The notes beneath the pieces were generated by a model. It saw nothing but the letters and a program-made list of their open reading frames with translations, did no database searches and was not told where the DNA came from. A stretch of 63,996 bases of DNA, filler included, from Chrysochromulina tobinii (taxonomy: Eukaryota), in assembly GCA_001275005.1 (NCBI GenBank). It is 6 parts of 6 records of this genome, joined end to end, with 100 filler letters (N's around TTAATTAATTAA, not from the genome) between each part and the next. Parts side by side here need not be neighbours in the genome. Positions count along the whole stretch, not along the records: positions 33,941 to 51,614 come from JWZX01001218.1; 5 more parts are not named here. One strand, 5' to 3'. The translations under genes and the position numbers were made by a program. Shown piece by piece: positions 26,139 through 57,528 of the stretch. Position 1 is the first letter of the stretch. Each line of letters begins with the position of its first letter.

Positions 26139-26448
26139 CCGCGACAACGAAGATTTATCTATCGTGTTAGCGCACTAGCTTTCTGGACGTCCTACTCTCC
26201 GTATTCATAGCTCGAAGAGCGCTCCGCGCTCTTTCTCTTTCATACTGGAAGTTCACACTTCAACTTCCTCAAGAAAATATCAACGCGTCAAGCGCTCTGC
26301 GCTTCGCCTTTCCGCGGTCGCCGTCAGGCTGCTGCGCTGATATTTTATTTTACCCACCCTCTCCTCCCTAGTAACGTGACCCGCGGGGTTACGTCTCGAT
26401 GCGTGTCACGACCACTTTTGGTCTCACCCGATCATGATATCACGGCGC

Positions 26449-28356: not shown

Positions 28357-28555
28357 GCTTGCGGCGACGATGCGACTCGTCTCGAGCGCGCCCAAGTGTC
28401 AGTGACACTTTCGGAGGATGATCTCACGTTTGAGATTACTTCAGAGACGCTCCGCGCCCCGACTCATGGACTGACTAGTGCCTCCTTTGGAGGCCCGACA
28501 TCCAAATATGGATGTTACGTCCCACGACGACGCGTAAGTTTGGGCGCACCAAACG

Positions 28556-34926: not shown

Positions 34927-35768
34927 TTGAGCCCTGGCCTCGACAACTCGACAGGAAACTCGACAGGAACTCGACAGGCTACTCGACAGGATACCTCGAC
35001 AGACCTCGACAGACCTCGACAGACCTCGACAGACCTCGACAGACCCCCCCCTGACTCCATGTGACGGCCTGTCAAGTGTCAAGCTCGACAGCTCGACAGA
35101 CCTCGACAGACCTCGACACGAGGTAACATGAGGTCTAAGACTGGGATCTAGCATTTTTAGCTGAGAGAAGCCAGGTTAGAGCCCCACTCCTTCAAGGTGA
35201 AGGTTGATGGACCCACTGGTCAACTACACAACTTGGTGGCTGGATGATGGATGTTCAGGTGGACCTTTCGATCCACGTTCGTGCTCTTTCGTGCTCTTTA
35301 TGACCTAATTCTCCTCAGAACTGCATTAAGATTGCATTTTCTGGTCTTGAAACCAGTGGCTAGGTAGGGGTTAGGGGTTAGGGTGTGAACGACGGGTCCT
35401 GATCTCCGAGTTCTTTATCCGTTTGACGCTTTGACCTAGTCTGGTTGGTGGTCTATGTGGAAGTTTATGTGTGGGTCCTCTCAAGGGGGTCCTCTAGGCC
35501 TACACGCCTACTGCTGTGAGAGTCAGAGTGCTTCATGAAAAATAGCAAAGCTACATGCGAGGCTCAAGCTCGACAGCACACTCGACAGTTATAAACTCGA
35601 CAGCCTCGACAGACCTCGACAGGCCGGCACATGTTGGAGTCAGCCTCGACGGGGCTTGACGGGGCTCGACAGGAACTCGACAGGCTCGACAGGCAAGGCC
35701 TCGACAACGGCCTCGACAGCGGCTCGACGGAGCCTCGACAGCTCGACAGCTCGACAGCCAGGGCTCAA
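34927..35768. mobile_element. 842-bp non-autonomous TIR element (MITE)
   Basis: 12-bp TIR TTGAGCCCTGGC/GCCAGGGCTCAA; perfect 8-bp TSD CGGAAAAC (34919-34926, 35769-35776); CTCGACAG arrays in both arms. Confidence 0.92.
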
Positions 35769-35910: not shown

Positions 35911-38043
35911 TTACATTTTCCTGGAACCGCCCATCATGAGGATAGATTTCGCCTCCTTCGCCTCGTTCATGGCTGCCTGTGCCGCGAGCACCGCGCCATC
36001 GCTCGCCGCATCCAAGCCCGCCGCTGCCGCCGCCGCCATCGCCTCTTTGAGCGCAGCGCCCGCCGCGGCCACCCGGGCGGTGGCCGCCTTGACCTCCTCT
36101 GGGCTCGCCTTCTTCTTCGTGGTGGACTGAGCGGGGGGCTCAGCCGAAACGTCCGAAAGGTCGACTGCGCTGCCGACCCGAGACGGCGCTGCCGACCCGA
36201 GGCTGTCGGGATCGGTGCACGTTGTCGCGAGAGACGCGGAGCTAGCGTTGCGCGACTTCGCGAGTGATGAGACGGAGCTGCTGCTCTCGTTCTTACTCAA
36301 CCTCTTCTCGACCATCCTCAACGTCACCATGAGCGGCGTGATCCTGTATCCGCCCACCATCGCCTCGCCGATCGAATCGAGCGACGCCTGCAGCGCAATC
36401 GATTCTGGCTCTGTCAGCGCAACGATGGCGGCCTTTGCCGCCATCGCGTCCTTTTTGAACGCCAGGCCGAGCGCGGCAAAGTCAAACTTGACAACAAGCT
36501 CGAGCTGCGGCGCCGCCTCCGCCTTCGCCTCCGCCGCAGCATCCGCATCCGATGGCGTTTCTTCGATGTTAAGCCCAGCCAAGCCGACCAGCGCGCACTC
36601 GACAGCCGCCTTGCGCGGCAAGGTGGGGATCGTCGTGCGCCCTAGGACCTCGCGCGCGTACAGGTTGGCATTCGTCACAATGTCCGGCTTGCTCCACTTG
36701 AGTGCTTTGCGCTGCCCATTCATCGCCACGATCCATGCGCGGTACGTCTGCGTGGCCACCTCGTCATCTACGCGCGCCGCCGCCGCTCGAACCGCTCGCA
36801 TCTCCTCCACACTCCCGAGGTTGTCGGAGGCCATATGCTCGATGGGCAGGCCCTTGAGTGTCGAGAGGAAGCTCTTTTCGTACTCGCAGAGCAAGAGGAT
36901 GGCTGCGCCCGACGCCCCAGCGCGGCCTGTACGCCCGATGCGTTGCACGTAGACATCGCGTGACGCGGGAGATCCAACTTGAAGGACGAGCGTGACATCG
37001 GGGTAGTCGACGCCGCGCGCCGACACGTCCGAGGACAGCAGCACCTGCTTCGTGTGCTTGCGGAAGGTGTCGGAGGCGTACGAGCGCTCGGTCGCCGTGC
37101 GTCGCGAGTGGATCTCGAGGACGGCGATCCCCATCTCCACTAGGCAGAGCGTCGAGAACTGCACCTGGCGGGCTGTCGGCAGGAAGGCCATGACCTTGTA
37201 CGTGTCGGGGTGGCTGGCCATCTCCTCGCGGATCAGCGCGTACAGCGCCACCATAGAGCGATCGAGCGGATGAACGAGCACCCGCTGCACAATCTGGGAG
37301 TGCGCGTCGGCCGTCACCTCGCCCACACAGTCGACGACGACGTGGTCGGGCCGGAGAGCCAGCCCCAGAACGGCGAGCATCTTCTCGGGGACCGTCGCCG
37401 AGAAGCAGAGCGTCTGTCGTCCGGCCGGGAGCGCGCTGATGATCTCCTCGATGTCACGCTGGAATCCGCCGTCGAGCAGCATGTCGCACTCATCGAGGAT
37501 GAGCACCTCGACACCGGCGAGCCGCGCGGCGAAGCTTGACGTGGAGTGCAGGTGCTCGATGAGCCGGCCGGGCGTTGCGACCATTACGTCGACAACGCCA
37601 CCGTACTGCGCCGAGAAGCGCTCGGCGATGCTCGGGTCGAGCCGCTCGCGCTGCGGCGTAACACTCGATGCACCCATGATCGTCTCGACGTTGTACTGTG
37701 GCAGCGAGGCGGCAAGCTTTTCGGCCTGCGTGACGATCTGCGTGCCGAGCTCGCGCGCACTGCTCAGCACGAGCGCGCGCACCGGGTCGACGCCGCTAGG
37801 CAAGGGCCGACGGGAGTTGCTCCGTGCAAGCCGCTCGAAGGTGGGCAGAAGGAAGGCAAAGGTCTTTCCGGTGCCAGTCTTGGCCTTTGCGAGCACGTCG
37901 GAGCCGGCGAGGCAGTGGGGCAGACATTCGGATTGGATCGGAGTCAGCTCCTTAACGCCCGCATCAGCGAGGGCTCGCACGAGCTCCTCGCGAATACCCG
38001 GCGCGGCAAGCGCGAGGGTCGGCATCGCGCGGTCTCGTTTCAT
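35911..38043 (-). CDS. DEAD-box RNA helicase (MSS116/DDX18-like clade) with C-terminal extension
   Basis: TPIQ Q-motif, AKTGTGKT, TPGR, DECD, SAT, ARGVD, QRIGRTGR. Confidence 0.92.
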   Translation of the reverse strand: MKRDRAMPTLALAAPGIREELVRALADAGVKELTPIQSECLPHCLAGSDVLAKAKTGTGKTFAFLLPTFERLARSNSRRPLPSGVDPVRALVLSSARELGTQIVTQAEKLAASLPQYNVETIMGASSVTPQRERLDPSIAERFSAQYGGVVDVMVATPGRLIEHLHSTSSFAARLAGVEVLILDECDMLLDGGFQRDIEEIISALPAGRQTLCFSATVPEKMLAVLGLALRPDHVVVDCVGEVTADAHSQIVQRVLVHPLDRSMVALYALIREEMASHPDTYKVMAFLPTARQVQFSTLCLVEMGIAVLEIHSRRTATERSYASDTFRKHTKQVLLSSDVSARGVDYPDVTLVLQVGSPASRDVYVQRIGRTGRAGASGAAILLLCEYEKSFLSTLKGLPIEHMASDNLGSVEEMRAVRAAAARVDDEVATQTYRAWIVAMNGQRKALKWSKPDIVTNANLYAREVLGRTTIPTLPRKAAVECALVGLAGLNIEETPSDADAAAEAKAEAAPQLELVVKFDFAALGLAFKKDAMAAKAAIVALTEPESIALQASLDSIGEAMVGGYRITPLMVTLRMVEKRLSKNESSSSVSSLAKSRNASSASLATTCTDPDSLGSAAPSRVGSAVDLSDVSAEPPAQSTTKKKASPEEVKAATARVAAAGAALKEAMAAAAAAGLDAASDGAVLAAQAAMNEAKEAKSILMMGGSRKM

Positions 38044-38047
38044 GTTA

Positions 38048-38133
38048 GAGACGAGTTCGTTTGTGAGACTTCGCAGTTCGTCACTTCCTTTTCCGAGACT
38101 TGAGTTCGAACACTTCCGATTCTGAGACTTCGC
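38048..38133 (+). repeat. Left TIR of the MULE
   Basis: Reverse complement of 51403-51488. Confidence 0.96.
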
Positions 38134-38139
38134 AGTTCG

Positions 38140-38825
38140 ACCACTACCGTTTGTGAGAGTTCACGGTTCTCCAGTTCCCGGTTTTGTTTGTGAGACTTTG
38201 GCTATTACCGTTTGTGAGACTTGAGTTCATTCGGCCATTACCGTTTGTGAGACTTTAGTTCCTTCGCAGTTCCGTTTGTGAGACTTCGCGGTTCCGTTTG
38301 TGAGACTTCGCAGTTCCGTTTGTGAGACTTCGCAGTTCCGTTTGTGAGACTTGAGTTCCTTCGGCCATTACCGTTTGTGAGACTTTAGTTCCTTCGCAGT
38401 TCCGTTTGTGAGACTTCACGGTTCCGTTTGTGAGACTTCACGGTTCCGTTTGTGAGACTTCGCAGTTCCGTTTGTGAGACTTCGGCCATTACCGTTTGTG
38501 AGACTTTAGTTCCTTCGCGCGTCCGATTCTGAGACTTCGCGGTTCCGTTTGTGAGACTTCGCAGTTCCGTTTGTGAGACTTCGCGGTTCCGTTTGTGAGA
38601 CTTCGCGGTTCCGTTTGTGAGACTTCGCAGTTCCGTTTGTGAGACTTCACGGTTCCGTTTGTGAGACTTCGCAGTTCCGTTTGTGAGACTTCACGGTTCC
38701 GTTTGTGAGACTTCACGGTTCCGTTTGTGAGACTTCACGGTTCCGTTTGTGAGACTTCACGGTTCCGTTTGTGAGACTTCGCGGACCGTTTGTGAGACTT
38801 CGCGGACCGTTTGTGAGACTTCACG
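38140..38825 (+). repeat. Left subterminal array (core CCGTTTGTGAGACTT, mostly 22-bp units)
   Basis: GGTTCCGTTTGTGAGACTTCAC-type units repeated more than 20 times. Confidence 0.96.
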
Positions 38826-39387
38826 GTAGCCAGCGAAGTGGCCAACCTCGAGAGAGAGATGAAGTTGTGCTTGTAGCCTAGGCGGCGGGGTTCGGCGGCT
38901 TCAGAAGGGCACAGAGATGGCGCCCGATGTCCTCCCACGGCTTTCCCACGGCCAGGGTGCTGATGAGGCCTCAGTGTTGAACCACTCTTCTTTCGCTCAG
39001 AGGAGCTCACCACATCAAGCGAGCCGCCGTTCTGGAGATTCATTGGCCACTGCCCCCCCTTAGCACAGTCGACCCCTCTCGGACTTCCTTACAGAAGTAG
39101 CGAGGGAGCCTTGCCATCCGAAGACGACTCGCTAATGACGGATGGGATGGACCGATTTCCCAGCGGCTCTCCGATGCAGCTGAAGAGGGTGACACGAGAG
39201 ACTAGGATCAAGCACGATCGCTCACGCGGGGAAGCTGGGGAGTCCTTGGGACGACATTCTGGCAGCCTTCTTCCACCCAGCCCCCCTTCCCCCCCTGGCA
39301 CGTTCCGCATCTGCAACGAGGGGGATGGGATAAGGCCGTCAGAACCAGCAGGTATGGTCTCGCCAACACACGCAGCGCATACCTCAA

Positions 39388-41193
39388 TCAAAACGGAAAT
39401 GTCAAAAGCGCACCGTCGATGTCCACAGGCCTTGGGATCACAGGAGAATCTAAGAAGCCGTGCACGCGCCAATTCTCACTGTCGACCTCGTCACCTGCAT
39501 GTCCAAAATCTCCACGAAAGAGGATCATGTCCCCTTCCTCAAAGATTGCAATCTCGTGTTTATCAGTGTCGAATGGCCATCCGTGTAGCCTAGTGTGATC
39601 TTGGAGCGCCAAGACAAACGCGAGAGGTACATCTTCAGGTGGCTGATTCCGCAAAGAGTTCCGATCCGCTGAATCAGCGTGGCGTGGTTGGTGTTCCTTG
39701 CGCTTGTTCGATCGAGGAAGGCTTCTCAACCCACACAGAACCGAGAGCTGTTTCTCACCTTGGGAGCACGAAAGGTAGCCAAGCGCACGGAATTTGGCTG
39801 TCAGTTGAGGGCCTACCTCTTCCGTCCAGCTTTGGTGGCCCACGGTGTGCAGTCTCTTGCCATCTGCTACCAGCTTTCCCCCACGCACGTCGTTGAATAT
39901 GGTTTCACACTTGCTTGTTCGGATTTGTCTCTTCATGTGCTCTGGGAGCTTCAACACGTCTTTTATTATGACAAATCCGCGCCTGTGCAGTGGGTTCTGG
40001 CGCATCAGCCAGGTATTTGCACGGGCTTGCAAGCGCTTGTCAAAGTAGTCAGATCGGATGGTTGCCTGCATTTCCGCACTCTCTTTCGACACTCGATCCA
40101 CAAACCCCTCCATCATGCGCAAATTGTATGAGACAACGTGCAGTCCGTCCACTTTCCCTGTGTCTTGCGAGTCCACTGCATTTCCGAGGACGTCCGCGTG
40201 CACGGTGCCATGTAAGCTTTGGTTGTAGTTGCTAACAAGAACGCAAATGAGGTCCTCATGCAGCACTGGGATCGAGACCCCTCGTCCACCCGTGGCAGAT
40301 TCGAAGATGGCGAATTCACGCCATTGAACAGGGTGCTGCTCATCTCCACCCAAGAACAGGATGGCACCGCCGAAGTCGCCTCCCCCATCCATCTTGTCCA
40401 CGTGCAAATCCGCCGCACTGGCATCCGGACGGTCACGCGACATATGACCTCGAACCACCACCTGTTGTGATGGGAATGTCACACCTCCTGGGGGTGCACG
40501 TGGATATTGGCACGTGTTCCTCCACACGTCCTCGTCGCTTTCAGCTCCGTCGAACACACACCAGCTTGCCATGTCGGGAAACAGTGCAGTCAGACACACG
40601 GCCAGGGTACCATTCAGAGAACTCAAAATTGGTTCGATTTCGTCGCTCCTGGATCCCGGTGATCTAGAAAACGGAATGTTCGTCGACCGGCCATCCAGCA
40701 CCACGGAATGTCGCTTCCTTCCAGGCAAAATGCCATGGCCCAGACTGATGTACTGGCCCGCTGCAGGCTGGATCGACGTGGAGTTCACATCCCCTTCTTG
40801 CTTCCCCGCCCAGATTCGTAGCTGATCCACGAGATTCTTTGTCGTCCCTTCTCCAAGGCCATTCATCTTGTCCACTGCGGTGTGCCTGACCCATGCGACA
40901 CGCGCCACAGCCTTGCCGTTTTCCGTTGTTATCTTCGCACCGTGCATGCTTTCTTCGTGAAGAAGAGGTAATGGCACCCGATCCAGAACGAGTCCACCTT
41001 GCGCGGACCTCAGGATTGGATTCCCATTGGACTTTGCAGACGCATGATCTGGATGGGAATGGTGAGATAGGGAGGCTATCACCTCGCCTTTATCTAGCAA
41101 AGCGCCAGACACGTGGAGGCGCACTCCCTCGCCCCTAATCACGTGCTCGGAGATGTCTGCACGCAAGTTCTCACCGGCACGGGTCTTGACTAG
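39388..41193 (-). CDS. Tandem dioxygenase ORF: TET/JBP-like domain + second 2OG-Fe(II) (PhyH-like) domain, in frame with the transposase
   Basis: Domain 1: LHVDKMD...SLHGT...HVVSY. Domain 2: RRGFVII...QPRHAD...GDMILFRGDFGHAG...NWRVH. Confidence 0.75.
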   Translation of the reverse strand, partial: LVKTRAGENLRADISEHVIRGEGVRLHVSGALLDKGEVIASLSHHSHPDHASAKSNGNPILRSAQGGLVLDRVPLPLLHEESMHGAKITTENGKAVARVAWVRHTAVDKMNGLGEGTTKNLVDQLRIWAGKQEGDVNSTSIQPAAGQYISLGHGILPGRKRHSVVLDGRSTNIPFSRSPGSRSDEIEPILSSLNGTLAVCLTALFPDMASWCVFDGAESDEDVWRNTCQYPRAPPGGVTFPSQQVVVRGHMSRDRPDASAADLHVDKMDGGGDFGGAILFLGGDEQHPVQWREFAIFESATGGRGVSIPVLHEDLICVLVSNYNQSLHGTVHADVLGNAVDSQDTGKVDGLHVVSYNLRMMEGFVDRVSKESAEMQATIRSDYFDKRLQARANTWLMRQNPLHRRGFVIIKDVLKLPEHMKRQIRTSKCETIFNDVRGGKLVADGKRLHTVGHQSWTEEVGPQLTAKFRALGYLSCSQGEKQLSVLCGLRSLPRSNKRKEHQPRHADSADRNSLRNQPPEDVPLAFVLALQDHTRLHGWPFDTDKHEIAIFEEGDMILFRGDFGHAGDEVDSENWRVHGFLDSPVIPRPVDIDGALLTFPF

Positions 41194-44100
41194 TCACCTT
41201 TCTCCGAGGTGAGATATTGTTGCTAAGCCAGGGAAAAATGCCTTCCAAAACACTGGTACGGGGAAGTGCATGAGGTGGTTAGGGAGGTAGCCAGCGAAGT
41301 GGCCATTGCCATTGTATTCCACGACAATATACAAGCCATTTGGTTGCCTGGACTTCAGGAAGGTTTCGAGGGTGTCCAACGGGTGGAAGACCTCACTGCA
41401 TTCCGCGTCGCCGTTGTACACCACGAATTGTTTCGGTGATGTTAAGTCCAAGACGAAGATAGGTACGTTGAGGAGATTCGCTAGCACTCCAAAAGTGCCA
41501 TCACTTCCCCCCCAAGTACCGTTCTGCGTGTCCGAGGCACACTTCAAGCCCAAGATCATCTTGACGTTTCGCTCCTGTGCCTGCCCGTCATTCATGAGCA
41601 CCTTGTTACGCTCCAGCACGTGAGTCTGCATGGCACGTAGAAGGATGCTCGACATTCTGTAATCACGCGCCGTTGGGGTCTTCTCAGGTTGTGTTTTCTG
41701 AAGGACTCGGACTGGGTTGGCGTGATCCAACGTGCCGGCGTAGCCAGCCATAACAGCGTACAGCCAGCAAGAGCCATTCCCTTTGACGGTCACACGGGTG
41801 CCGATGAGGTCCTTGGGTACCTTGTCCAATTGAGCCCGAGTCGCTTGAATGCCCTTGGCAACGTCCTCTTTCGACTTTTGAGCTCCTTGGTGTGAATAGT
41901 ACCTCTCAAGCTCCATTTTCCGCCACGCTTCGACAGCATCTTTAGACCATTGCGAGGAGAGCAAGTGCTCATCGATCTCCGTTGCCGCAGCGATCTCACT
42001 ATCAATCGCCATTCTTTCCAAGTGCTCGGTCGTGAGATACATCTCCCATGCCTTCCTGTCCTTGACGCTCATTGTCAAGACATCGACGAAGCTCTCCTTC
42101 CTGGCTCTTTTGGGGGAGGACTCGGCCGATACGTCATTCAAGAGGGCTGATGTTGAGGCATAAGATGCCCGCGCAAACTCCGCCACGTCTGCTGCGCCAT
42201 CCACGGAGAAGCCCACTTTCTCCCAGAATGCCTTCGACTCCGCCTTGCATCCTCCGAGGTTGACGCGGATCTTGGTGTTGGGCTCCAATATGAATAGGAG
42301 GGTACATAGTTGAAAGACAAGCAACGCGCCATTTCCTTTCGCCCCGGACGCGCAACAGCGGACGATCTCGAGGATCACGGCCTTCTCCCTGGCATGTTTC
42401 CTTTGCATCCGTCTCAACAGCATGACACCATCACATGCGTCACCGCGCTTTCGTACGAAGTAGAACGTGTTGTCTTTCGCCGGCGACGTGTGCATGATTG
42501 TCCAAAAAGAGGACAGTGTGGAATTCGGCTGGAACGGAGAGGTTTCATCGAGAGGCACCAGATCTTGAATTGGTAGAGCTGGATCGAGTTCTTGGGCGCC
42601 ACGCATCAAGAGGCAGCCCTTCTCGGATCCATCCAGCTCATAACGCAGGGAAAAGGACCATGGGCATTGCTGATGAGGGTCGGGTCCTATGACGAAGAAG
42701 GAGCTCAATCGACCATCAGGCTTCATTCTCCAAGCTTTTTCCAGAACTGCAGGTGCTGGTGGGTCTTGTGCCTTGATGTCAGACATTGAGGCACCCTGCA
42801 AAAAATTCGTCTGTGAGTCATGGGTTGCCGAGCCACCTGTGTTAGAGGCACCTGACTCCCGCTCCGTTTCTCGCCTCTTCCAAGCTGCTACCGCTTCATC
42901 GTGTTTTACGCAATGACGACTCCATCTTTGAATGTCCTTATCAAAACGGGCTTGAGCATCGTCATCCCGATAGTGCCCGTAGTGACCACGCGTGGGATAC
43001 TTTGGCCTTTCGTCTGCCTTCGAGGGACGCAAGTACTTGTAGTGTTCTCCGTCGTACAAGACATGAATCGAGGGGTTTGCATACGTGAGCTTGGAGGTAG
43101 AGGCATACCGTTCCGGCTCCGTTCGAGTTCCGTCGTGCACGACTAGGTCAACCTCGAGGGCCAAAGCGGTGAGAAGAATGCCTTCTTCGGACACCCATTC
43201 ATCAGCTACGGCCATCTGGGCTCTGAACCATTCCATGGCTTCTTCCGTACTTTGGCCGTCTCGGCGATGCAAGTTCTCAGCAATGACATGTTTGTGATCT
43301 GGGAGTTTACCTACGACAAAGTCCCTGTACTTCGCGTGCTGATGCTCGTCGAATTCAAAGTGTAAAGCCAAGCACCGGAAAAAGCATGCCCCATCACCGA
43401 CGACGTCGAAAACTTCGTACCCAGCTTCGGTTAGGGATCTTTCGAACGCCGCAACTTCCGCCTCCGAGGCATTCTTGCGTCTCGCGTGATCATCCCATTT
43501 CGCGACCTCTGGACCCAGTTCATTCTCGACATTTTGCTCACGCAAGGCCCTGCGAAGCTGTGCAACAAGGTCTTTTTTGAGGAGCTTCGGAGTTAAGCCC
43601 ATTGCGCGGAGGTACGATTGAATAGCTTTGACGGTCATGCTCTGGATTGAGTCTGCCTCCAAAGGAGGGAGGGTTGATCTCGGTAACACTGATGCGGGTA
43701 CCTGAGCAACGACCTCAAGGTTTGCCTCGTCCGTCTCGGCCAGCGGGGCGCCATTCTCATCCACCGTCACTTCCATGTTGACTTCCTCGCCGTCCGCCAC
43801 CTCCTCATCCATCTCATCCATACCTTCCACCTCTTCCTGTGCTCCAGGTGCCTCTTCCGCCCCAGCCTCGTCCGCCTCTTCTTCTTCCTGTGCTCCTGCC
43901 TCATCCGCCTCTGCCACTTCCTCTTCCTGTGCTGATGCGTCTTCCTCTTCCTGTGCTGCTGCCTCATCCTCCTCTTCCGAGGCTCCTGCCGACTCTGCCG
44001 CCTCTGCCTCTTCCTCTTTTTCCGGTGCTGCGATGACATCATCCACTGTCTTCCGTAGCCACTCTCTGTCGTAATGTGACCCCTGCTTCACACCGAGCTC

Positions 44101-47100
44101 CGTCTCAAGCTGCGCCTTCAACTTTTTCATGGAAACCACGTTGAGGTCGACATCCTTGATGTATCGATTCACCCAGATCTTTATCGACTCTAGCGTCGAC
44201 GCGTTGTGCGGCACTGAGTCTTGGATCCCTAAACCTTCAACACGTTTGTCAAAGGGGGCAACCGAATTGTTGTTTGCTGGAAGACGACCATCTTCTGGAT
44301 ACCGTTGTGACGCAGATGTGGCGGCTTCTTCGGCGCCCTCGACGCTTGAGTAGTGCGCGTGAGGACTCATTGACGGCTCCTCGAAGGCGACTTGCTCTGC
44401 TTCAACAGTGGGACCAGCTGCGAACGTCGTAGCATCTGACTCGCTAATGACTGATGCCGCTGTTTCCCGTGCTGCTGCCTCTTCTACCTTCTCGGGTTCC
44501 TCAAGCGAAACACTTTCCATCTGACCGGGCTGCTTGTTACGCTCGTCGTCCACATTGACGAAGAATGCATTGACGATGGCCTCACGGTCAATCATCTGCC
44601 GAGGCGCAGCAAGTGTCGGTGCAACAGAGGCTACCTCGAGGTCTCGTGAAGGGCACTTATCCCGACGATGTTCACTCGACTTGCAAAAGCTGCACGTCTT
44701 GGACGTGCCCTTTCCACCTGGATTGTAACCTTGTCCGCCTGTGGCCGCATAGTGTCCAAGGACCGTCTGGGCCTTGGTTGCTGAATGAACGTCTTCGATG
44801 ATGCTCTTGAGTCGCCGCTTTTCATTTGCAAGCTGCTTGAGGATCGATGGACGTCCTTTTGGAGCGGGCCGGATTTCCGGTTGAGTAGCCTGCAGGAACT
44901 GAGATGTCGCATGGCAAGATACCAAACCGCGGATGATTTCCTGGCCCCCAGGGACACAGAAGTCTGGCCCAACTTGACGTTCCCAAGTGTCTGCGCGGCA
45001 CCAGTACGGGACCCAAGCGCGCCAGTCAGTATTGATAGCTCTGAAGAGCGCCTCCGTTTCCTTGCACCACAAGTTGCTGAAGCCTCCCTTGCCACACGAG
45101 CACAACTTATGAAACTGCCGGGTATGGAAGCAGTTCAGGTCGACCACATGGACAATCTCTCTGTTGAGCGTCACTCTCCACACCTTATCATTGTTCTCGT
45201 CCACCTTGTGAACACGGAGGAGGTCCTGTACCTTCGCTCTCAGAGCAGTATGTTCCTTGAACACCGGCTCCGTGATGGAATCCTGTGGCCAAGTGTCCTC
45301 TGGCCTGAGCAGCGCCGCTGTTTGCCTAAAATTCTGCATCGCTTTCAGATGCTGGACCTTGCTTCGCAAGTCGTCACGGCGGCGTTTGAGAATGGCCACA
45401 GTAGCGAGCAACGAGTTGCAGAGCTCCTTTTGCTTCCGCGTCTCTGCAAACATGTGGTTCGAGACTTCAGCGAAGTTGTTGGTCTTGACGCCGAACAACG
45501 ACCCATGGAGGTACGCCTGACAGATTTGTTCACGAGGAATCTTGCGAAGCGGGCTACGTTCCGGGAGTTTCGCGAAAAGTTCATCAGCTTCTTGAACTCG
45601 TCCGAAGGGCACTTGCAAGAGCTCTTCGTATATTTGCAGGCTCAACTTGCATCGTTTCCGCAACTCCTCCTTCATGTGGTGCATGCACCGAAATAAGCTG
45701 GTGGAGGGATGCATGGCGTTCTGCACGCCCATGAGCGCTGGCCCGCCATCGGTGATTGTGACTCTTCCGGGCGCGTCCAAAGGCGAATTCGTAGTCAACC
45801 CAGGTGACGACGATTGCCTCAAGAGCACATTCTCCGCCGTCATGTGCGCGTTCAGTGCTGCATTGCACTCTGACGTAAGCAGGACACTGATCGAAATGGG
45901 ATGCACGTTCTCGTTGGCGTCCTTTGTTGCCCGTATGAACATCGTACCAGCTGCATCATCTCTCATGGCTGCCCCATCGATCGCATCAACAGGAATGAAG
46001 TTCAGAAGATTGTCGTACATCATGTTCTTTGGGATCAGAGTCCAGCCAATGACATACTTGTTAGAGTGGTCCTCGTCCTCGGTGTACTTGGAGATGACTG
46101 TCGTCAGATTGTCAGGATTGAAGGGAACGGACTTAGCGACCGGGTCCTTCGCTTGCCATGCTCTGTACTGATTCTTCGCTATGTCCACGATCATGGTGGC
46201 GACGGTGGACGCACTCACCATGTGGAATGCGACTCCGAATCCTTGCTCACCGAGATTGTGAGCCAAGCCATGCAGCAAGCTGACGTTGAAGGCTGGGGAA
46301 AGGATGCTGGGTGCCTTCAACTCCCTAAGCACGGCGAACGCCATTCTTCTGTTGGCTGCGGAATCGAGCCGCTGCATTTCTTCGAAGACGTCGTCCACGC
46401 TCCACGGCGATTTCGAAGCGTCGAATCTGGACTTAAGAACGCTGACGTGGTGCGATGCTTTGACACGTCGGCCACCGCAACCTGCTGGAACTAACGAGAG
46501 AGCTCCCGCCGAACTTGGTATGGTCGATGTGCTCCCTGTGTTGGATGCCGCACAGCTCGCACAGCTCGGAGGCGGTATTGGAGGCGGTATTGGAGTTGCC
46601 AAGCACGTATGGGGTTTGTAGAGAGTGCACACCCAGACGAGGTTGTCATCAGGCACATCCGAGTACAACGAGGGAAGCTGCGGAAGACTGATTCTGGTCG
46701 TTGGGTTAGACTCAGTACCCAGTCCGTAGAAAAATTTCGTCCAGGAGGTCGGTTTGTAAGCCCCCCTCCGCAACTGTCCCATCTTAATCAGCTGCGCCTG
46801 AACGATGCAGTGGCATCCCTCGTGATTGAAGAAGTCTTTGGCACGGCTGCCGTTTTCTTTTTTCGCCTTCTTCTCCTCTGACGCGGAGCCTCCCTCTGAC
46901 TCCGGATTGACTCCCGACGCTTTGTCTCGCACAGCATCCATTGATTTGCAGACATAAACTTTGCAGGTAGGCGCTGTGCCACCCAGGGGACGTAGCGCTG
47001 CCGGGCTTTTTGAACGTATGATAAGGTCTACCACTTTTCCTCCTGGTTGCCCCGTGAAATCCAGCACGCTGCCGTATTGGAGTTCCGCGTTTGCGCCCTG

Positions 47101-47766
47101 TTGAAGACCTGCTTGGATGGCATCTTGTTCGGTATTTGCCGCCTCGGCCCGGCTCGCATGGCGTGAGATTTGCATGGCCTCCTCCAACATCGACGATGTT
47201 GTCATGTACGCAGCTTCTTCATTACGGTCCTTTTGAAGTTGCTTTACGAGAACCTGAATAGTGTCTGGTAAGCACGTGAGAGGTGCCGCCTCGACGTGTT
47301 CCAAGACTGAAGCGTGAGTGACCTTGATCTTCTCCCTGATAGCACAATGAAAAACTTCGGACGAGCTTATGATGTCTTCTGTGGCGCTCGCAGCAACATC
47401 TTTCTCACGATTGTGGACCATAGACTCGTCCTCGGCAACCTGGAGATCATGCATCGGCGTGCTGAGGGGCTCGACGCCGTCAAGAGGAACATCGAGATCA
47501 ACTTGAAGATTCGTTATGAGGTGGATTGACCACGCTGATTTGGATCTTCGATAGGGAGTCTTCGACGCCGAATGTTCTTGAATACCATCTGGTACAGTAG
47601 GAGGAGCAGCTGGTCGCTGAAAAGCATCAGAGCCGGTATCGACCAAATCAGAGGTCTTGCGAGCCTTGCCACCATGTCCTTCATGCCCAGCACGACTAGG
47701 ATGAGACGGAGGATTTGCGGCTGGAGTCGTAGAAGATGAACTAGCGCCTCCGGGATTGTTGGTCAC
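41194..47766 (-). CDS. Multidomain MULE transposase (DDE, SWIM-like, Zn knuckle, DEK-C, SAP, OTU, GNAT-like, OTU)
   Basis: AIDG...TKDAN...ITDGG...RCMHH...TNNFAE; CSCG..WCKE; CSFCKSSEHRRDKC; DLNVVSMKKLKAQLETELG; MTVKAIQSYLRAMGL..KKDLVAQL; GDGACFFR...EHY; KGNGALLV...FWEKVGF; GNGSCWLYA...GHF. Confidence 0.9.
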   Translation of the reverse strand: MTNNPGGASSSSTTPAANPPSHPSRAGHEGHGGKARKTSDLVDTGSDAFQRPAAPPTVPDGIQEHSASKTPYRRSKSAWSIHLITNLQVDLDVPLDGVEPLSTPMHDLQVAEDESMVHNREKDVAASATEDIISSSEVFHCAIREKIKVTHASVLEHVEAAPLTCLPDTIQVLVKQLQKDRNEEAAYMTTSSMLEEAMQISRHASRAEAANTEQDAIQAGLQQGANAELQYGSVLDFTGQPGGKVVDLIIRSKSPAALRPLGGTAPTCKVYVCKSMDAVRDKASGVNPESEGGSASEEKKAKKENGSRAKDFFNHEGCHCIVQAQLIKMGQLRRGAYKPTSWTKFFYGLGTESNPTTRISLPQLPSLYSDVPDDNLVWVCTLYKPHTCLATPIPPPIPPPSCASCAASNTGSTSTIPSSAGALSLVPAGCGGRRVKASHHVSVLKSRFDASKSPWSVDDVFEEMQRLDSAANRRMAFAVLRELKAPSILSPAFNVSLLHGLAHNLGEQGFGVAFHMVSASTVATMIVDIAKNQYRAWQAKDPVAKSVPFNPDNLTTVISKYTEDEDHSNKYVIGWTLIPKNMMYDNLLNFIPVDAIDGAAMRDDAAGTMFIRATKDANENVHPISISVLLTSECNAALNAHMTAENVLLRQSSSPGLTTNSPLDAPGRVTITDGGPALMGVQNAMHPSTSLFRCMHHMKEELRKRCKLSLQIYEELLQVPFGRVQEADELFAKLPERSPLRKIPREQICQAYLHGSLFGVKTNNFAEVSNHMFAETRKQKELCNSLLATVAILKRRRDDLRSKVQHLKAMQNFRQTAALLRPEDTWPQDSITEPVFKEHTALRAKVQDLLRVHKVDENNDKVWRVTLNREIVHVVDLNCFHTRQFHKLCSCGKGGFSNLWCKETEALFRAINTDWRAWVPYWCRADTWERQVGPDFCVPGGQEIIRGLVSCHATSQFLQATQPEIRPAPKGRPSILKQLANEKRRLKSIIEDVHSATKAQTVLGHYAATGGQGYNPGGKGTSKTCSFCKSSEHRRDKCPSRDLEVASVAPTLAAPRQMIDREAIVNAFFVNVDDERNKQPGQMESVSLEEPEKVEEAAARETAASVISESDATTFAAGPTVEAEQVAFEEPSMSPHAHYSSVEGAEEAATSASQRYPEDGRLPANNNSVAPFDKRVEGLGIQDSVPHNASTLESIKIWVNRYIKDVDLNVVSMKKLKAQLETELGVKQGSHYDREWLRKTVDDVIAAPEKEEEAEAAESAGASEEEDEAAAQEEEDASAQEEEVAEADEAGAQEEEEADEAGAEEAPGAQEEVEGMDEMDEEVADGEEVNMEVTVDENGAPLAETDEANLEVVAQVPASVLPRSTLPPLEADSIQSMTVKAIQSYLRAMGLTPKLLKKDLVAQLRRALREQNVENELGPEVAKWDDHARRKNASEAEVAAFERSLTEAGYEVFDVVGDGACFFRCLALHFEFDEHQHAKYRDFVVGKLPDHKHVIAENLHRRDGQSTEEAMEWFRAQMAVADEWVSEEGILLTALALEVDLVVHDGTRTEPERYASTSKLTYANPSIHVLYDGEHYKYLRPSKADERPKYPTRGHYGHYRDDDAQARFDKDIQRWSRHCVKHDEAVAAWKRRETERESGASNTGGSATHDSQTNFLQGASMSDIKAQDPPAPAVLEKAWRMKPDGRLSSFFVIGPDPHQQCPWSFSLRYELDGSEKGCLLMRGAQELDPALPIQDLVPLDETSPFQPNSTLSSFWTIMHTSPAKDNTFYFVRKRGDACDGVMLLRRMQRKHAREKAVILEIVRCCASGAKGNGALLVFQLCTLLFILEPNTKIRVNLGGCKAESKAFWEKVGFSVDGAADVAEFARASYASTSALLNDVSAESSPKRARKESFVDVLTMSVKDRKAWEMYLTTEHLERMAIDSEIAAATEIDEHLLSSQWSKDAVEAWRKMELERYYSHQGAQKSKEDVAKGIQATRAQLDKVPKDLIGTRVTVKGNGSCWLYAVMAGYAGTLDHANPVRVLQKTQPEKTPTARDYRMSSILLRAMQTHVLERNKVLMNDGQAQERNVKMILGLKCASDTQNGTWGGSDGTFGVLANLLNVPIFVLDLTSPKQFVVYNGDAECSEVFHPLDTLETFLKSRQPNGLYIVVEYNGNGHFAGYLPNHLMHFPVPVFWKAFFPGLATISHLGER

Positions 47767-48491
47767 CGGCCCTGTCCTCTGTGCCAGTCATTCACGAGGT
47801 CGTCGTAGTTATAAGGCACGCCTGGTCCTCTGCCAATCCTCTTAGACGCCGAATGCTCTTGAATACCATGTGCTACAGTAGGAGGAGGAGCTGGTCGATG
47901 AAATGCATAAGAGCCCGTATCGACCCCATCAGAGGTTATGCGTGCCTGACCGCCACGTCCTTCATGCGCAGCATGACTAGGTTGAGACGGAGGTTTTGCA
48001 GCAGGAATAGAAGATGAACTAGCGCCACCGGGATTGTTGGTCACCTGCCCTCGTGCATCCCAATCCTTCAGGAGTTCGGCGTCGGTAACAGACACGCCTG
48101 GTCCTCTGCCAGCTCGGGGTGCCTGATAGAGCTCCCATGCAGCCTTGACGGTGAAAGCCTTGTCAACGCCATCCGAGTACTGCATGAGACCGGTTGTCAC
48201 GTTGGTACGACTCCATCCGGGGGGCAAACGTTCCGCCGACGAGGATGGAATGGCTGCACCGAGCGTGTTTTCCTCCTCCGTGCGACTGCATTCTGGACGA
48301 GGACCATGTACCCCGGCTCCTCCAGGAGCACCAGCAAGAACTGCGCCTGGAGATGCACAGTTTGGTTGCGCTGGAGAGGAGGACAAACATCGAGGAAGAG
48401 GCATTGACAGCGAAGACGATGATGACATCGATGCGGACGACGCCGTACCTGCTTGATCCGGTGCTCTGTTGCTCTTCTTTCTCCCCATCAT
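47763..48491 (-). CDS. Probable N-terminal part of the transposase gene (out of frame by intron or frameshift)
   Basis: ATG 48491; contains a diverged duplicate of the first ~70 aa of the transposase ORF, which itself starts with GTG. Confidence 0.5.
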   Translation of the reverse strand: MMGRKKSNRAPDQAGTASSASMSSSSSLSMPLPRCLSSSPAQPNCASPGAVLAGAPGGAGVHGPRPECSRTEEENTLGAAIPSSSAERLPPGWSRTNVTTGLMQYSDGVDKAFTVKAAWELYQAPRAGRGPGVSVTDAELLKDWDARGQVTNNPGGASSSSIPAAKPPSQPSHAAHEGRGGQARITSDGVDTGSYAFHRPAPPPTVAHGIQEHSASKRIGRGPGVPYNYDDLVNDWHRGQGR

Positions 48492-48759
48492 GCAGGCTTG
48501 CGCGCGCACCCAACCCGTCACCGACTTTTCTGCGCGGCGTCTCAAAACGAACTGGCAAGTCTCACAAACGGAACCACGCACGAACTCAAGTCTCGCAAAC
48601 GGAACTCAAGTTTCGCAAGTCTCACATACGGAACCACGCACTATAAGGCAAGTCTCGCAAACGGTGCAAGTAACTTTCGAACATAAGTTTCTCTACAACC
48701 TTGTCGCGCAGGCGAAACACTCAAAGCAAACTTCCTGTGAACCAACGTGTTGTGTTAAC

Positions 48760-49270
48760 ATGAAGAAACGCGCGTACAGAGAGTTCCACGCGTTCATGAA
48801 CACCATTGCGTCGCGACAAGATGCGCGCGCGCGCACAGCCAGGATGGCCTCTGCGCCGGTGACAAGATCCGCAGCCAGGATGGCCTCTGCGCCAGGACGT
48901 GAAGCTTGTGGCGACGCCTCAGAGTTCATCACAATCGAAGTGATTATGGAGGATGGCCGACCCGGCGAGAAAGTGACCCGTGCGCGGCATCGCCATGAAA
49001 CCATCCCTGGGACCCGCAATGGTTGCCGTCCCACCAAGCTGACCACATAGAGAGCCTATGTGCGGTGTGCACTCAGACATAAGATGCAAGCGCACGACGA
49101 CTTTCGAAAAGCTGATTTTGGCCTACAAAAGGCTCCACCGCGACGTGAGCCGAGGCTCGTTGTACTTTCAGTACGACGGCCAAGAGCTAGTTCCAAGACA
49201 GACCCCGGATGATTTCAAGATGCAGGACGGCGCGGTCGTTTGCGCGCTTCGCGTGATCTCCGTCGAATAG
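48760..49270 (+). CDS. SUMO-like (Rad60-SLD type) protein without C-terminal GG, 2 exons
   Basis: Intron 48980-49076 (GTGCGC...GCTGAC...CTCAG) gives FITIEVIMEDGRPGEKVTHIRCKRTTTFEKLILAY...FQYDGQEL..QTPDDFKMQDGAVV. Confidence 0.8.
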
Positions 49271-50294
49271 GTCAGAGTGTGTACACGGGTTGCATCTTTG
49301 GGGAATGCGTGAGTCTGTGGTACTTGTGTTCCTACCTGTCAACGCCGTCCGAGTACTGCTGGAGTCGTTGCACGATGTCACGACGGCGAGACATGGTGGT
49401 GACGGCGGCGCGACGGTGACGAGTCTGCCATGCTGTGGATACACTCAATTTGGTATTGTATAGCGCTGTGAGGGCGGCAGCGACGGAGGTGTTGGTGAAG
49501 GGAGGTCTGCGCGCGGTAGCGAGAGAGTGGAGAGTATCTGGTGAGATGTGATATGATTGTTCATTCAATTATTGAGGTGATTTTCTCACACCACTGTCCT
49601 TTTTAGGACAAGACAAACCTTTTCCCTTCAGCAGGGAACCCTTTTCTCGGCCCCTAAAATGCTAGTAACCATTGGCGCCGCGCTCGAGCTATGCACGTCG
49701 CTGCGCGCAGATGCGCCACCCTGCTGCTGCATCGTACGCTGCGCGCAGATGCGCTTGAGATGCGTCCGTAGTGATGCGTAAACAACCCCGTTTTGATGCG
49801 GTGGTCGGGCGATCAACTCTCTACTGCCACCAAGCGTGTCTGCAGGTAATCCCTCTCAGATTCCGTTTCATGAGACCTGGCTTCTGCTGCATCGTACAGG
49901 TAGCCAAGCGCAAATCTGGAACACACCAGCCAATCAGACTGCGCAGGTCAGGCTTCATTCATCTGCGAAGAACGCCAAGAGGGAAATGTCAAGAGTCTAC
50001 CGTATGCAAGTTGCATAAGCAGGTGTGGTCTCAGCCTCAACAAGCATGGTCCTCAAGGCGCACATGTTCCTGATGCGTGCCAGCGCTGCAGAAGGCGTAC
50101 AGGAATCGCATCCGCAAGTGTCTTCGGTGATGCTGCACCAGACCCGAACATCGCTCACTCTTAGCCGCACCAGACCCTAACAATACACATGATGCCCATG
50201 TGAAGTAGTGACACTGTAAAACCTGAGGATGCGCCCTGCGGATACGCGGCGAGGATCACAGAGACAAGCTCTTTAATTCCGTCTGGTCGGTGAA

Positions 50295-50864
50295 TCACGA
50301 GAGCAAATAAGAAGGTAACATGGATGGATCAGGCTTAAAGACGTATTGAAGCCAAGCATCCGCAGGCAAAGAGCACAGAAAGTCACGATAACGGCAAACT
50401 TGAGTCACGCACTGAAATTCACTGCTGCTGTCTTCGTCTTGAAGTTGAAGTAGTTTGCTGTGTAAAGCAACCACTTGTAACGCTGCCCTTTCAGCTTCAA
50501 GATCGGAATCATCGACTAGTGATCTCAGGGTGCCACATCGATTTGCAAGGAGTAAATCACCGAACGTCATTGAGGTCGGTATGCAACTGATAACCACCAT
50601 GTGCTCAGAGGGAATAAAGATGTCGCGCAAGAAGCAAAACAGGAAGACGTGCCAAGCGCCTTGCTCCTTATCAAAATCCAAAACCCAGCCATGGACTGCG
50701 GTTACGTGCGCCAGGAATTCGCTTTCGGCGTGCGTTGACGCTCTCCCAACACCGAGCGGGCTGCACAACAACGACAACGTCGTTGCGTCGGATGCAGGTC
50801 GGACACGAACCAGTGATCCTTGGGAAGCGAGAGCATCACCAACCACGGGCCATGCGATCGACAT
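50295..50864 (-). CDS. Hypothetical MULE cargo protein (may continue by splicing to ~49815)
   Basis: 189-aa ATG ORF next to the right array; a downstream Cys-containing open segment has plausible GT-AG sites. Confidence 0.45.
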   Translation of the reverse strand: MSIAWPVVGDALASQGSLVRVRPASDATTLSLLCSPLGVGRASTHAESEFLAHVTAVHGWVLDFDKEQGAWHVFLFCFLRDIFIPSEHMVVISCIPTSMTFGDLLLANRCGTLRSLVDDSDLEAERAALQVVALHSKLLQLQDEDSSSEFQCVTQVCRYRDFLCSLPADAWLQYVFKPDPSMLPSYLLS

Positions 50865-50874
50865 GTCACGAACA

Positions 50875-51400
50875 ACTCAAGTCGAACTCAAGTCTCACAA
50901 ACGGTAGTGGCCGAAGGGAACTCAAGTCTCACAAACGGTAGTGGTCGAACTCAAGTCTCACAAACGGTAGTGGTCGAACTCAAGTCTCACAAACGGTAGT
51001 GGTCGAACTCAAGTCTCACAAACGGTAGTGGCCGAAGGGGACTCAAGTCTCACGAACGGTAGTGGCCGAAGGGGACTAAAGTCTCACAAACGGTAGTGTC
51101 AAACTCAAGTCTCACAAACGGTGGTAGTCGAACTAAAGTCTCACAAACGGTAGAGGCCGAAGGGGACTAAAGTCTCACAAACGGTAGTGGTCGAACTCAA
51201 GTCACACAAACGGTAGAGGCCGAAGAAACTCAAGTCTCACAAACGGTAGTGGTCGAACTCAAGTCTCACAAACGGTAGTGGCCGAAGAAACTCAAGTCTC
51301 ACAAACGGTAGTGGTCGAACTCAAGTCTCACAAACGGTAGTGGCCGAAGAAACTCAAGTCTCACAAACGGTAGTGGTCGAACTCAAGTCTCACAAACGGT
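50875..51400 (-). repeat. Right subterminal array (core AAGTCTCACAAACGG, ~29-34-bp units)
   Basis: GAACTCAAGTCTCACAAACGGTAGTGGTC-type units; core inverted relative to the left array. Confidence 0.96.
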
Positions 51401-51402
51401 CC

Positions 51403-51488
51403 GCGAAGTCTCAGAATCGGAAGTGTTCGAACTCAAGTCTCGGAAAAGGAAGTGACGAACTGCGAAGTCTCACAAACGAACTCGTCTC
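51403..51488 (-). repeat. Right TIR of the MULE
   Basis: Reverse complement of 38048-38133. Confidence 0.96.
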
Positions 51489-51614
51489 TTTTATGTTAAT
51501 ACACACAACACGTAAGCAGTACAGCCGTGTAAACTTGGTCGCGTGTTTGACTTGAATTGCTGTTCATCAGAGCTACACAAGCAGCCTGGTGAGCGCGACA
51601 ACCCGGTCCCTGCT

Positions 51615-52195: not shown

Positions 52196-52758
52196 CAGCC
52201 TGGTTTGTTATTGGATACAAGTCCTGATGTATCGTGATGTATCGTGCATGTATCCTGAAGGTTACACGTATCCTGATGAATCCTAATGTATCTCAAATGT
52301 ATCTTACATGCTCTGTTACATTCGAAGAGAATACATGTATCCCCTTGCATGTATCTTGACATTTTGCATGTATTTTGACATGTATCCCAATAGGAGTCCA
52401 AGATACATTTGGGATACATGTCAGATACATCAAGATACATGTATCTTGCGCACTTCCTTGGTGTCACCTTTGATACATATCAGGATACATCAAGATACGT
52501 GTATCCTATAGACTGTTCATCGCGATACATCAGGATACATGTACACCGAGATACAAAATCACGATACATGTGTCTTGGACGGAATACATGCGGGATACAA
52601 TCTGAAATGCATACCTCGAATGTATCCAGAGAGGTACGTATCTGAGATGCAAGATACATACAAGATACATTCGGGATACATGTATCAAACATGTATCTGC
52701 AGAGGTGATCAATAAATCAAGATACATACGGGATACATCTGAGATACATTATGGGATA
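52196..52758. repeat. ATGTATC/GATACAT-rich quasi-palindromic repeat (probable truncated MITE)
   Basis: ATGTATC motifs dominate the left part and their complement GATACAT the right part. Confidence 0.7.
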
Positions 52759-56692: not shown

Positions 56693-57528
56693 TCATTTCA
56701 TGTACGTGGTCTCGGCCAACGAGCTGCGTGAGTCCGCATCCATAGGGTGCAGCGCAGCGAATGGCAGCCCTCGGATCACAACGGCGCGCGAGTGGCACGC
56801 AGCTCTGAGCTCGTCGCATGCTGGGCAAGCACCTGCATGTACGGGCTGCCCAGGGTTCACTCGCTCTCGAGAGCCCACAGGCCGGACATAGTGGGGGTAT
56901 GGAGAGTCGACCTCTCCAACGACGAGCCGCTGCAAGCTGGGCAGGGCGCCTCGGCTCAGGACGCTCGTGAGCGCCGCGAGCCCGTCCGACACTTGATGAC
57001 CCCGCAGGCTGAGCTCCTGCAGGCAAGGCGCGCCACCGCTCTCGAGGGCCTCGGCCAGCGCGGCGAACCCCGTGCGCCCAAATGGATTGTACCTGATGAG
57101 GGAGGCAATTAAGAGTCATCAGAGGTCATCAAGAGGCAATCGTGGGCCCAAATGGATTGTACCTGATGAGGGAGGCAATTAAGAGTCATCAGAGGTCATC
57201 AAGAGGCAATCGTGGGCCCGAATGGAGTGTACCTGATGAGGGAGGCAATTAAGAGTCATCAGAGGTCATCAAGAGGCAATCGTGGGTCCGAATGGGTTGT
57301 ACCCCAAGCTGAGCGTCTCGAGGGCGGCGAGGGCGGCGGTGCTCGTGGCCCCGCCGGCCGCGTGTCCTAATTTGGTCATAGACCCGCCGGTCGCGCGCCC
57401 ATGCGAAGGCGCCGCTCGATGGTAAAGGTCAGCTCGATGGCGGCCGAACGTCGATGTGACGAGACGGGTGCTGGTGCTGGTGCTGGTGCTGGTGCTGGTG
57501 CTGGTGCTGGTGCTGGTGCTGCTACTCG

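Follow-up and report, generated by a model that had tools for sequence, protein, structure and literature searches.

The window analysed in this study is a stretch of 63,996 nucleotides (filler included) from the eukaryote Chrysochromulina tobinii (assembly GCA_001275005.1), and the part taken from JWZX01001218.1 harbours a 13-kb Mutator-type DNA transposon at positions 38048–51488. Its minus strand carries a main open reading frame (ORF, 41194–47787) of 2197 codons, which encodes a transposase together with a series of cargo domains, and directly behind it a second ORF of 601 codons with two dioxygenase domains, DOX1 (40009–41193) and DOX2 (39391–39980). An earlier note, in the following referred to as the original prediction, had described a Mutator-like element (MULE) whose cargo is directed at chromatin, ubiquitin and DNA modification. 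Fold and profile searches and the domain order kept in relatives bear out this description, but the cargo is not a single conserved toolkit, and a conserved candidate readthrough junction, at which the dioxygenase ORF continues in frame across TGA-CTAG, had been overlooked. On balance, the element is probably a MULE in which a transposase-OTU-GNAT fusion is extended by a TET-like enzyme through programmed readthrough, and which in this way counters silencing by the host.

Both ends of the element are preserved. The terminal inverted repeats (TIRs, 38048–38133 and 51403–51488) are intact as predicted, with 86 of 86 bases identical and the left repeat 100% complementary to the right one. The target site duplication (TSD, 38038–38047 and 51489–51498) has the predicted length of 10 bp, but its copies match at 9 of 10 positions and not perfectly; alternative lengths of 6–13 bp reach six matches at most. 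TSDs of MULEs comprise 8–11 bp, and TIR and TSD of the element fit the definition of MULEs (PMC6446971). The element has a GC content of 55%, in comparison to 63–65% in its flanks. Arrays of short repeats occupy the left end (38048–38830; units of 22–33 nt with a GAGACT core, 30 cores) and the right end (50880–51488; 19 GAGACT cores), the latter terminating in the right TIR. These arrays are likely the binding sites of the transposase.

The candidate readthrough site, an in-frame TGA followed by CTAG (41190–41196, minus strand), lies between the transposase ORF and DOX1. The dioxygenase ORF starts directly after the TGA (41194–41196) in the same frame and contains no methionine for 82 codons. 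A profile search with DOX1 fetched 18 metagenome loci (L001–L018), of which 15 could be evaluated for the junction; left out were L001, which has the same junction inside a 721-bp inversion, and L016 and L017, which are too short. All 15, from four lineages (A–D), showed a TGA and then an in-frame DOX1 ORF, and OTU2, the last cargo domain, stands immediately before DOX1 in 16 of 16 loci with upstream DNA. The junction reads TGA-CTAG in lineages A and B, TGA-CTAT in C and TGA-CAACTA in D. Beside it, OTU2 is only 35–51% identical among lineages, synonymous sites are near saturation (proportion of synonymous differences 0.66–0.83 in the DDE core and OTU2), and CTA accounts for 6.5–13% of the leucine codons. 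UGA-CUA(G) and CARYYA are known readthrough motifs, with readthrough of 1.5% for UGA-CUA alone and up to 31% in OPRL1 (PMC4132726), and TGA-CT[A/G] is found between gag and pol of fission-yeast retrotransposons (bioRxiv 2022.12.06.519325). With duplicates removed, five of five distinct junction contexts are leaky, against 0 of 60 other stops that end ORFs of 300+ codons. From these sequence features, it is likely that the junction TGA is subject to programmed readthrough.

The 82 codons ahead of the first methionine of DOX1 are 61%, 51% and 36% identical to those of lineages B, C and D, respectively, and their ratio of nonsynonymous to synonymous substitutions (dN/dS) was 0.40 and 0.33 where measurable. 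In the structural model these residues have a mean predicted local distance difference test score (pLDDT) of 73–95 per 10-residue block, and they lie within the range aligned to TET2. A search for introns that keep the frame and remove the stop, with GT[AG]-type donors up to 75 nt upstream, found none in five of six sequences. Single hairpins are predicted after the stop, the best, in L018, being separated from it by 8 nt; across six sequences z ranged from -2.5 to +0.7.

For the comparison of relatives seven lineages were distinguished: A (window, L001–L004), B (L005/6, P0004), C (L007–L015, P0005), D (L018, partial), and the proteins P0002, P0003 and P0006. GNAT and OTU2 are present in seven of seven. 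The catalytic Cys of OTU1 is kept in A, B and C, whereas P0002 and P0003 have Ser and P0006 lacks OTU1. DEK-C occurs only in lineage A, while lineage C carries a WW domain and P0002 a PH-like domain; the SUMO-like ORF is likewise restricted to lineage A. The order transposase-(OTU)-GNAT-OTU-TET-like is retained in diverged relatives. No relatives were found in scans of viral contigs and prokaryotic genomes. Pairwise dN/dS ratios (Nei-Gojobori, window against L003, without significance test) were 0.20 for GNAT, 0.21 for DOX1, 0.22 for the DDE core, 0.30 for DOX2, 0.37 for OTU2, 0.42 for OTU1 and 0.50 for SAP, with DEK-C within 0.20–0.42 and the linkers at 0.41–0.64. Purifying selection acts on domains on both sides of the stop. 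The ratios of 0.20–0.42 in most domains agree with cargo kept by selection, but DEK-C and the SUMO-like ORF were not found in the other lineages, and OTU1 is altered or missing in three. As a whole, therefore, the toolkit is not conserved, and half of it is specific to subfamilies.

The DDE core of the transposase (45466–45978, minus strand) contains D604, D680, a CxxH motif at C701 and E774, and these residues are invariant in six of six aligned proteins (the window protein and five relatives, 39–59% core identity). The CxxH motif is a criterion for MULEs. In the ESM Atlas the top match of the core was a MULE cluster (0.95, 173 shared features), and the Pfam scan of the core gave zero MULE matches. 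Taken together, the element almost certainly belongs to the Mutator/MULE superfamily. Of the DDE/SWIM/zinc-knuckle core originally proposed, the DDE residues and the zinc knuckle (CX2CX4HX4C, intact in the window protein) hold, while the SWIM finger in the same segment (44653–45110, minus strand, assigned by motifs) is degenerate: Glu replaces the last His ligand in the window, and the His is kept in P0002 and P0005 (Pfam SWIM E 0.02 for P0002). Further upstream in the protein, a probable WRKY-GCM1 'HxC' DNA-binding domain (46603–46956, minus strand) was assigned by motif only; Cys...H[TS]C is present in five of five proteins spanning this region, and the family is described in PMC1702500. The transposases of lineage C (L013/L014, P0005), with about 3000 codons up to the stop, begin with a domain that resembles GDSL/SGNH hydrolases (Pfam E 0.017).

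The transposase ORF has about the size originally given (2197 codons from stop to stop, 2190 if counted from a GTG), but it is not a complete gene, with its first ATG at codon 112. The true N-terminal segment lies at 47763–48491 (minus strand, ATG at 48491), has an LPPGW...KAAWE motif in common with P0002, and in L003/L004 reads into the transposase without a change of frame. In the window, a net 2-nt insertion near 47775 puts this segment in a different frame; it lies within a tandem duplication (47559–48017, minus strand) of 281-bp units that are 84% identical. The lesion lies in the DNA, since L001 and a contig of a second DNA run show an identical frameshift. The sister copy L003/L004 has a single open ORF of 2278 codons, the protein being about 90% identical. 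Therefore, the window copy is probably impaired and the family is not. Barring a translation start at Met112 or a splice that restores the frame, this copy probably relies on sister copies that are intact. On paper, at least 21 GT..YAG intron pairs could repair the 5' frameshift, and none has read support. That the LPPGW motif might be MBD-like found no support in Pfam and PDB profile searches, the second profile being dominated by P0002.

The cargo begins after the transposase core and was recovered largely where it had been expected. DEK-C (44035–44172; Pfam E 2e-5, 24.7 bits against a cutoff of 24.8), an acidic low-complexity tract apparent from the sequence (43700–44030) and SAP (43543–43647; Pfam E 8e-4 when scanned alone, under the cutoff) are followed by OTU1 (43018–43470; D1465, C1468, H1582), all on the minus strand like the domains below. 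An AlphaFold model of residues 1370–2197 (12 sequences, mean pLDDT 70.5) showed an OTUD1/OTUD3-like deubiquitinase fold for OTU1 (Z 14.1, root mean square deviation (rmsd) 2.5, 141 aligned residues), and OTU1 of L005 passes the Pfam cutoff. The next domain (42043–42666) is predicted to have the fold of a GNAT acyltransferase, with Z scores of 11.1 to KKT23, 9.4 to GCN5 and 9–10 to bacterial GNATs. Every match of its profile search was a GNAT, although with E 0.03 or weaker, and the SGxxGxG motif is conserved. The second OTU-like protease, OTU2 (41280–41810; N2004, C2007, H2163), is divergent. Both OTU domains keep the Cys and His as originally claimed, and every lineage has the Cys and His motifs of OTU2, with Phe for Cys in L013, but the assignment of OTU2 as an OTU draws on motifs and low-scoring matches (Pfam E 0.038; best match of the profile against the PDB a viral OTU, E 0.028). 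It lies outside the span of the fold matches, and hhalign aligned it to OTU1 with a probability of 4%.

On the plus strand, in divergent orientation, a SUMO-like domain exon was detected at 49043–49270 (Rad60-SLD E 1e-9), which confirms the SUMO-like gene; it is probably spliced to an upstream exon. As read, this ORF has no C-terminal Gly-Gly (its last residues are ...VISVE in the window copy, and ...VIAIE in that of L003), though an unseen splice could alter this, and the Pfam scan of the window proteins gave zero Ulp1-type SUMO proteases. The proposed removal of SUMO marks therefore finds no support. A further ORF of 189 codons (50295–50863, minus strand) is 90% identical and open in L003/L004.

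The OTU and GNAT domains might serve the protein and not chromatin, for example in polyprotein processing, in protection of the transposase from ubiquitin-dependent destruction, or with a non-histone target of the GNAT. Polyprotein processing was proposed for MULE-OTU fusions of Medicago (PMC1702500), and it would suit the position of OTU2 directly ahead of the stop. Also, the chromatin-binding cargo (DEK-C, SAP, WW, PH-like) is swapped among lineages, and the GNAT matches are not histone-specific. On the other hand, the modelled fold of OTU1 resembles the ubiquitin isopeptidases OTUD1/3 rather than that of a processing protease, Foldseek ranks GCN5/PCAF among its best matches to the GNAT, and chromatin is also suggested by the company of SAP, DEK-C and a TET-like domain. 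A function of these domains at the protein level is less likely than not.

The two tandem dioxygenase domains of the original prediction were both found. In the model of DOX1 (H264, D266, D269, H328, His352; first methionine at codon 83) the mean pLDDT was mostly 70–95 per 10-residue block. Foldseek matched it to TET2 (E 4e-7), and a VIA comparison, which is a second look at the Foldseek hits, gave Z 15.6 for TET2 (rmsd 4.6, 274 aligned residues, model residues 1–378 in the aligned range), 13.8 for NgTET1, 13.5 for CcTet, 12.8 for CMD1 and at most 10.7 for the AlkB family; the top 16 rows were all TET2, NgTET1, CcTet or CMD1. In BFVD, a protein named as phage JBP1/TET protein took rank 3. A double-stranded beta-helix fold of the TET/JBP type is therefore predicted for DOX1. 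A profile search collected 135 representatives of the DOX1 family (50% identity) at E 0.001 or better, and 48–49 of 50 near-full-length sequences retain HxD, the Asp at +3 and the distal His. DOX1 may well be catalytically active on 5-methylcytosine (5mC).

If readthrough is real, DOX1 could still differ from an ordinary TET enzyme, by using another co-substrate or by serving the transposase as a 5mC-binding guide module. Four residues ahead of the stacking Tyr (Y-4), at the position predicted to bind 2-oxoglutarate, Arg is found in 34 and Lys in 6 of 50 sequences of the wider family, and His in 17 of 17 sequences of the transposon clade, which also have Gly at Y-6 and form a single branch (support 100 in a quick tree of 46 rows). 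CMD1 has lost 2-oxoglutarate binding through the loss of a basic pocket residue (PMC7854593). However, 48–49 of 50 sequences, the whole His clade among them, retain the metal site with its three ligands as well as the base-reading Asp. Moreover, the position of the His was assigned by motif spacing only, without residue-level superposition, and a His can still bind a carboxylate. A DOX1 with such altered chemistry is rather unlikely; like a protein-level role of OTU and GNAT, it is compatible with readthrough.

DOX2 (H505, D507, H565 and R576 of the 601-codon ORF) was classified as a PhyH-like 2-oxoglutarate-Fe(II) dioxygenase from features and motifs, the pLDDT of its model (2 sequences) being under 50; in the ESM Atlas it matched PhyH-type and giant-virus clusters (0.94–0.95). 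It is present in lineage A and P0007, and a diverged HxD...H was seen by eye in D, while B and C have different tails. Outside the transposon clade, proteins P0086–P0211 represent the wider TET-like family in which the Arg is retained, and single members have weak SET (P0196) or PHD (P0191) matches.

Several observations weigh against the combined interpretation of junction and cargo. The 60 control stops compared with the junction include shadow ORFs. The 15 loci represent only four lineages with many near-duplicates, and relatives without DOX1 could not appear, because the loci were fetched by DOX1. P0002, P0003, P0006 and P0007 are known as proteins only, and P0007 may have its own start. 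No consensus RNA structure was found downstream of the stop. Four of six RNA runs were analysed and yielded short contigs of low depth, possibly from DNA, and none among those listed bridges the junction (one non-intron joint was seen at 39301–39383). Regarding the cargo, OTU1 is dead or absent in three of the six lineages spanning it, and the GNAT cannot be called GCN5-specific, with GCN5 below KKT23 in Z and level with bacterial GNATs. For DOX1, the sequence search against the PDB gave no match, Pfam Tet_JBP matched neither the window protein nor any of 4 close and 44 distant homologues, and the His at the predicted 2-oxoglutarate position may mean that catalysis is changed or lost.

A rival explanation is a dioxygenase made without readthrough, either by alternative splicing, in which a donor further upstream is joined to an acceptor right behind the stop (the AG of CTAG), or from a separate transcript whose translation begins at a non-AUG codon. 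DNA transposons commonly have spliced fusions, and TGACTAG resembles a branch-point and acceptor signal. The sparse RNA contigs are compatible with splicing from a distant donor, and the search for donors covered 75 nt upstream. Nevertheless, lineages C (TGA-CTAT) and D (TGA-CAACTA) have no adjacent AG and yet keep stop, frame and readthrough motif. The strict phase of the two ORFs in four lineages is required neither by splicing nor by a separate promoter, and no ATG precedes the conserved N-terminal 80 codons of DOX1 in lineages A–C. These points make synthesis by splicing or from a separate transcript improbable. As explanations of the TGA, a nonsense mutation by chance, a variant genetic code and selenocysteine are largely refuted and have next to no probability, even though TGA is the commonest stop of long ORFs (36 of 60 controls) and the window copy carries another lesion, the frameshift, because the stop is at the identical place in four lineages, each of nine coding sequences has exactly one internal stop, namely the junction TGA, the DOX ORF of lineage A itself ends in TGA, the stop lies in a poorly conserved linker, the Rfam scan gave no selenocysteine insertion sequence (SECIS), and no fused transposase-DOX1 form was found among proteins of 1079–3080 amino acids, the last being a weak test.

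According to the readthrough model, one mRNA would span both ORFs. Most ribosomes would terminate at the TGA and release a transposase-OTU-GNAT-OTU form of about 2280 amino acids, and a few per cent would read through to a form of about 2880 amino acids ending in the TET-like and, here, also the PhyH-like domain. The DNA-binding domain of the transposase would tether the cargo to the element via the GAGACT arrays at both ends. There, the TET-like domain would oxidise 5mC at methylated CpG sites and so counter silencing, the GNAT would modify chromatin or some other target in the nucleus, and the two OTU domains would strip ubiquitin off the transposase or off chromatin. By way of readthrough, an enzyme that oxidises DNA and is potentially genotoxic would stay scarce and bound to the element. 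Indirect support for an anti-silencing role comes from the divergence of two copies, in which synonymous C/T changes are 2.3-fold commoner at CpG (74/384 versus 75/876, p 2e-7); this is consistent with CG methylation of the transposon family. Such a purpose is probable. Only tentatively, the element may be seen as a self-targeted eraser, in which a readthrough-dosed TET-like enzyme on the transposase is combined with deubiquitination and acetylation at the element ends and has a chemistry distinct from TET2 and CMD1, marked by the pocket His.

Regarding other copies of the element, a contig of one DNA run spans the left junction with zero differences, and contigs from four DNA runs contain one identical and at least one diverged version, their depth not being a copy number. 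According to the run labels, the GC-rich eukaryotic host occurs in freshwater and mixed-culture metagenomes. TIRs related to those of the window element are present in L009 and L014, the only other two loci with both ends; a TSD is absent there, and the assemblies are possibly chimeric. In L003, two 10-mers (12758–12767 and 15398–15407) matching in 8 of 10 positions lie at the right end and at a second left TIR 2.6 kb away, and this pair may be the TSD of this sister copy in a collapsed assembly. Near-identical copies contain inversions of 721–732 bp (L001:9278–9998, L009:8874–9605, L012:3919–4650), whose breakpoints have no clear inverted repeat and which are real variants or assembly artefacts; P0001 is the truncated product of the L001 inversion. 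A conserved segment 3' of the dioxygenase ORF (38961–39255) has 82% nucleotide identity in lineage C and 75% in D, in comparison to about 65% in their coding regions. Its frames shift between copies, and L007 lacks it; it may be a conserved cis element or RNA, or the result of a recent exchange between subfamilies. Rfam gave 0 matches over the whole element, including this segment and SECIS.

Beside the element, a DEAD-box helicase gene was identified at 35911–38047, with its probable start about 20 bp from the left TIR, so that the insertion cut it off from its own upstream region. Elsewhere in the window, ORFs at 24378–30976 and 11809–12744 (gag-like, RT/RNase H-like and recombinase-like) resemble, judged by eye, a tyrosine-recombinase retrotransposon of the DIRS/Ngaro type. 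Further arrays of short units of 10, 11 and 70 nt (34980–35128, 35590–35671, 52388–52749 and 57071–57303) may be the ends of other small elements.

These findings bear on the way in which transposons dose their anti-silencing enzymes and direct them to a target. The TET cargo genes of fungi and algae are untargeted or uncharacterised, and VANC is the sole sequence-specific case. If the model is true, the dose is set by a leaky stop and the aim by the transposase, and translational recoding extends to cut-and-paste transposons. The unannotated TET-like family may make new DNA bases and could serve as a source of epigenome tools. At the TGA, gene callers cut elements of this kind in two, a possible reason why they were overlooked earlier.

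TET-positive DNA transposons of fungi were reportedly described by Iyer et al. in 2014. TET cargo is known from 11 lineages of fungal DNA transposons, with MuDR/MULE not among them (Kojima 2025, PMC12730594), and Chlamydomonas has a CMD1 transposon and TET-carrying Helitrons (bioRxiv 10.64898/2026.10.09.758095). The element has in common with these a TET/JBP-fold dioxygenase aboard a DNA transposon, proposed to act against silencing by methylation. It differs in the absence of a Pfam Tet_JBP match, in the His at the predicted 2-oxoglutarate site and in the candidate leaky-stop link; in Kojima's elements, TET is a gene beside the transposase, and the main text contains neither 'fused' nor 'stop codon' (PMC12730594). 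DNMT5 and DNMT1 of haptophytes are treated in PMC9998398. With TET2, Naegleria TET1, Coprinopsis CcTet and CMD1 (Z 12.8–15.6, 7–15% identity) DOX1 shares the HxD...H metal site, the Asp three residues after HxD and an aromatic residue for base stacking. In comparison to TET2, motif spacing places Gly at Arg1896, His at Ser1898 and Leu at His1904. The HxDxxD spacing equals that of H345/D347/D350 in CMD1, an enzyme that uses vitamin C and reads the cytosine N4 with D350 (PMC7854593).

Some plant MULEs bear Ulp1. MULE-OTU fusions are found in Medicago (PMC1702500), OTU domains also in Helentrons (PMC6431247), and a Phytophthora MuDR with SET and the Arabidopsis Vandal element with VANC are cited in PMC12730594 and PMC6446971. 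The element shares with cargo MULEs the Mutator DDE and the zinc knuckle, here beside a degenerate SWIM finger, the 10-bp TSD, the C-terminal OTU fusion and a cargo interpreted as anti-silencing. Here, however, two OTU domains flank a GNAT, TET-like and PhyH-like dioxygenases are added, and one frame extends over about 2800–3350 codons; the passages compared on cargo MULEs mention no GNAT. The in-frame TGA followed by CT[A/G] or CARYYA is shared with the Gag-Pol readthrough of Tj1, Tosmo1-3, Tcry1 and Tca2 and with alphaviruses and tobamoviruses, as are a context conserved across diverged elements and a fusion protein made in the minority, which is predicted here. In contrast to these systems, the stop lies in a cut-and-paste DNA transposon, and the extension would be an epigenetic enzyme instead of a polymerase. 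Programmed readthrough of UGA is otherwise known in cellular genes, LTR retrotransposons and viruses. A literature search, whose scope left out Repbase, Dfam and non-CC papers, gave no match for readthrough in DNA transposons or for the combined architecture. Each type of cargo has a precedent; within this search, the combination and the conserved candidate readthrough junction to an unannotated TET-like family appear to be new.

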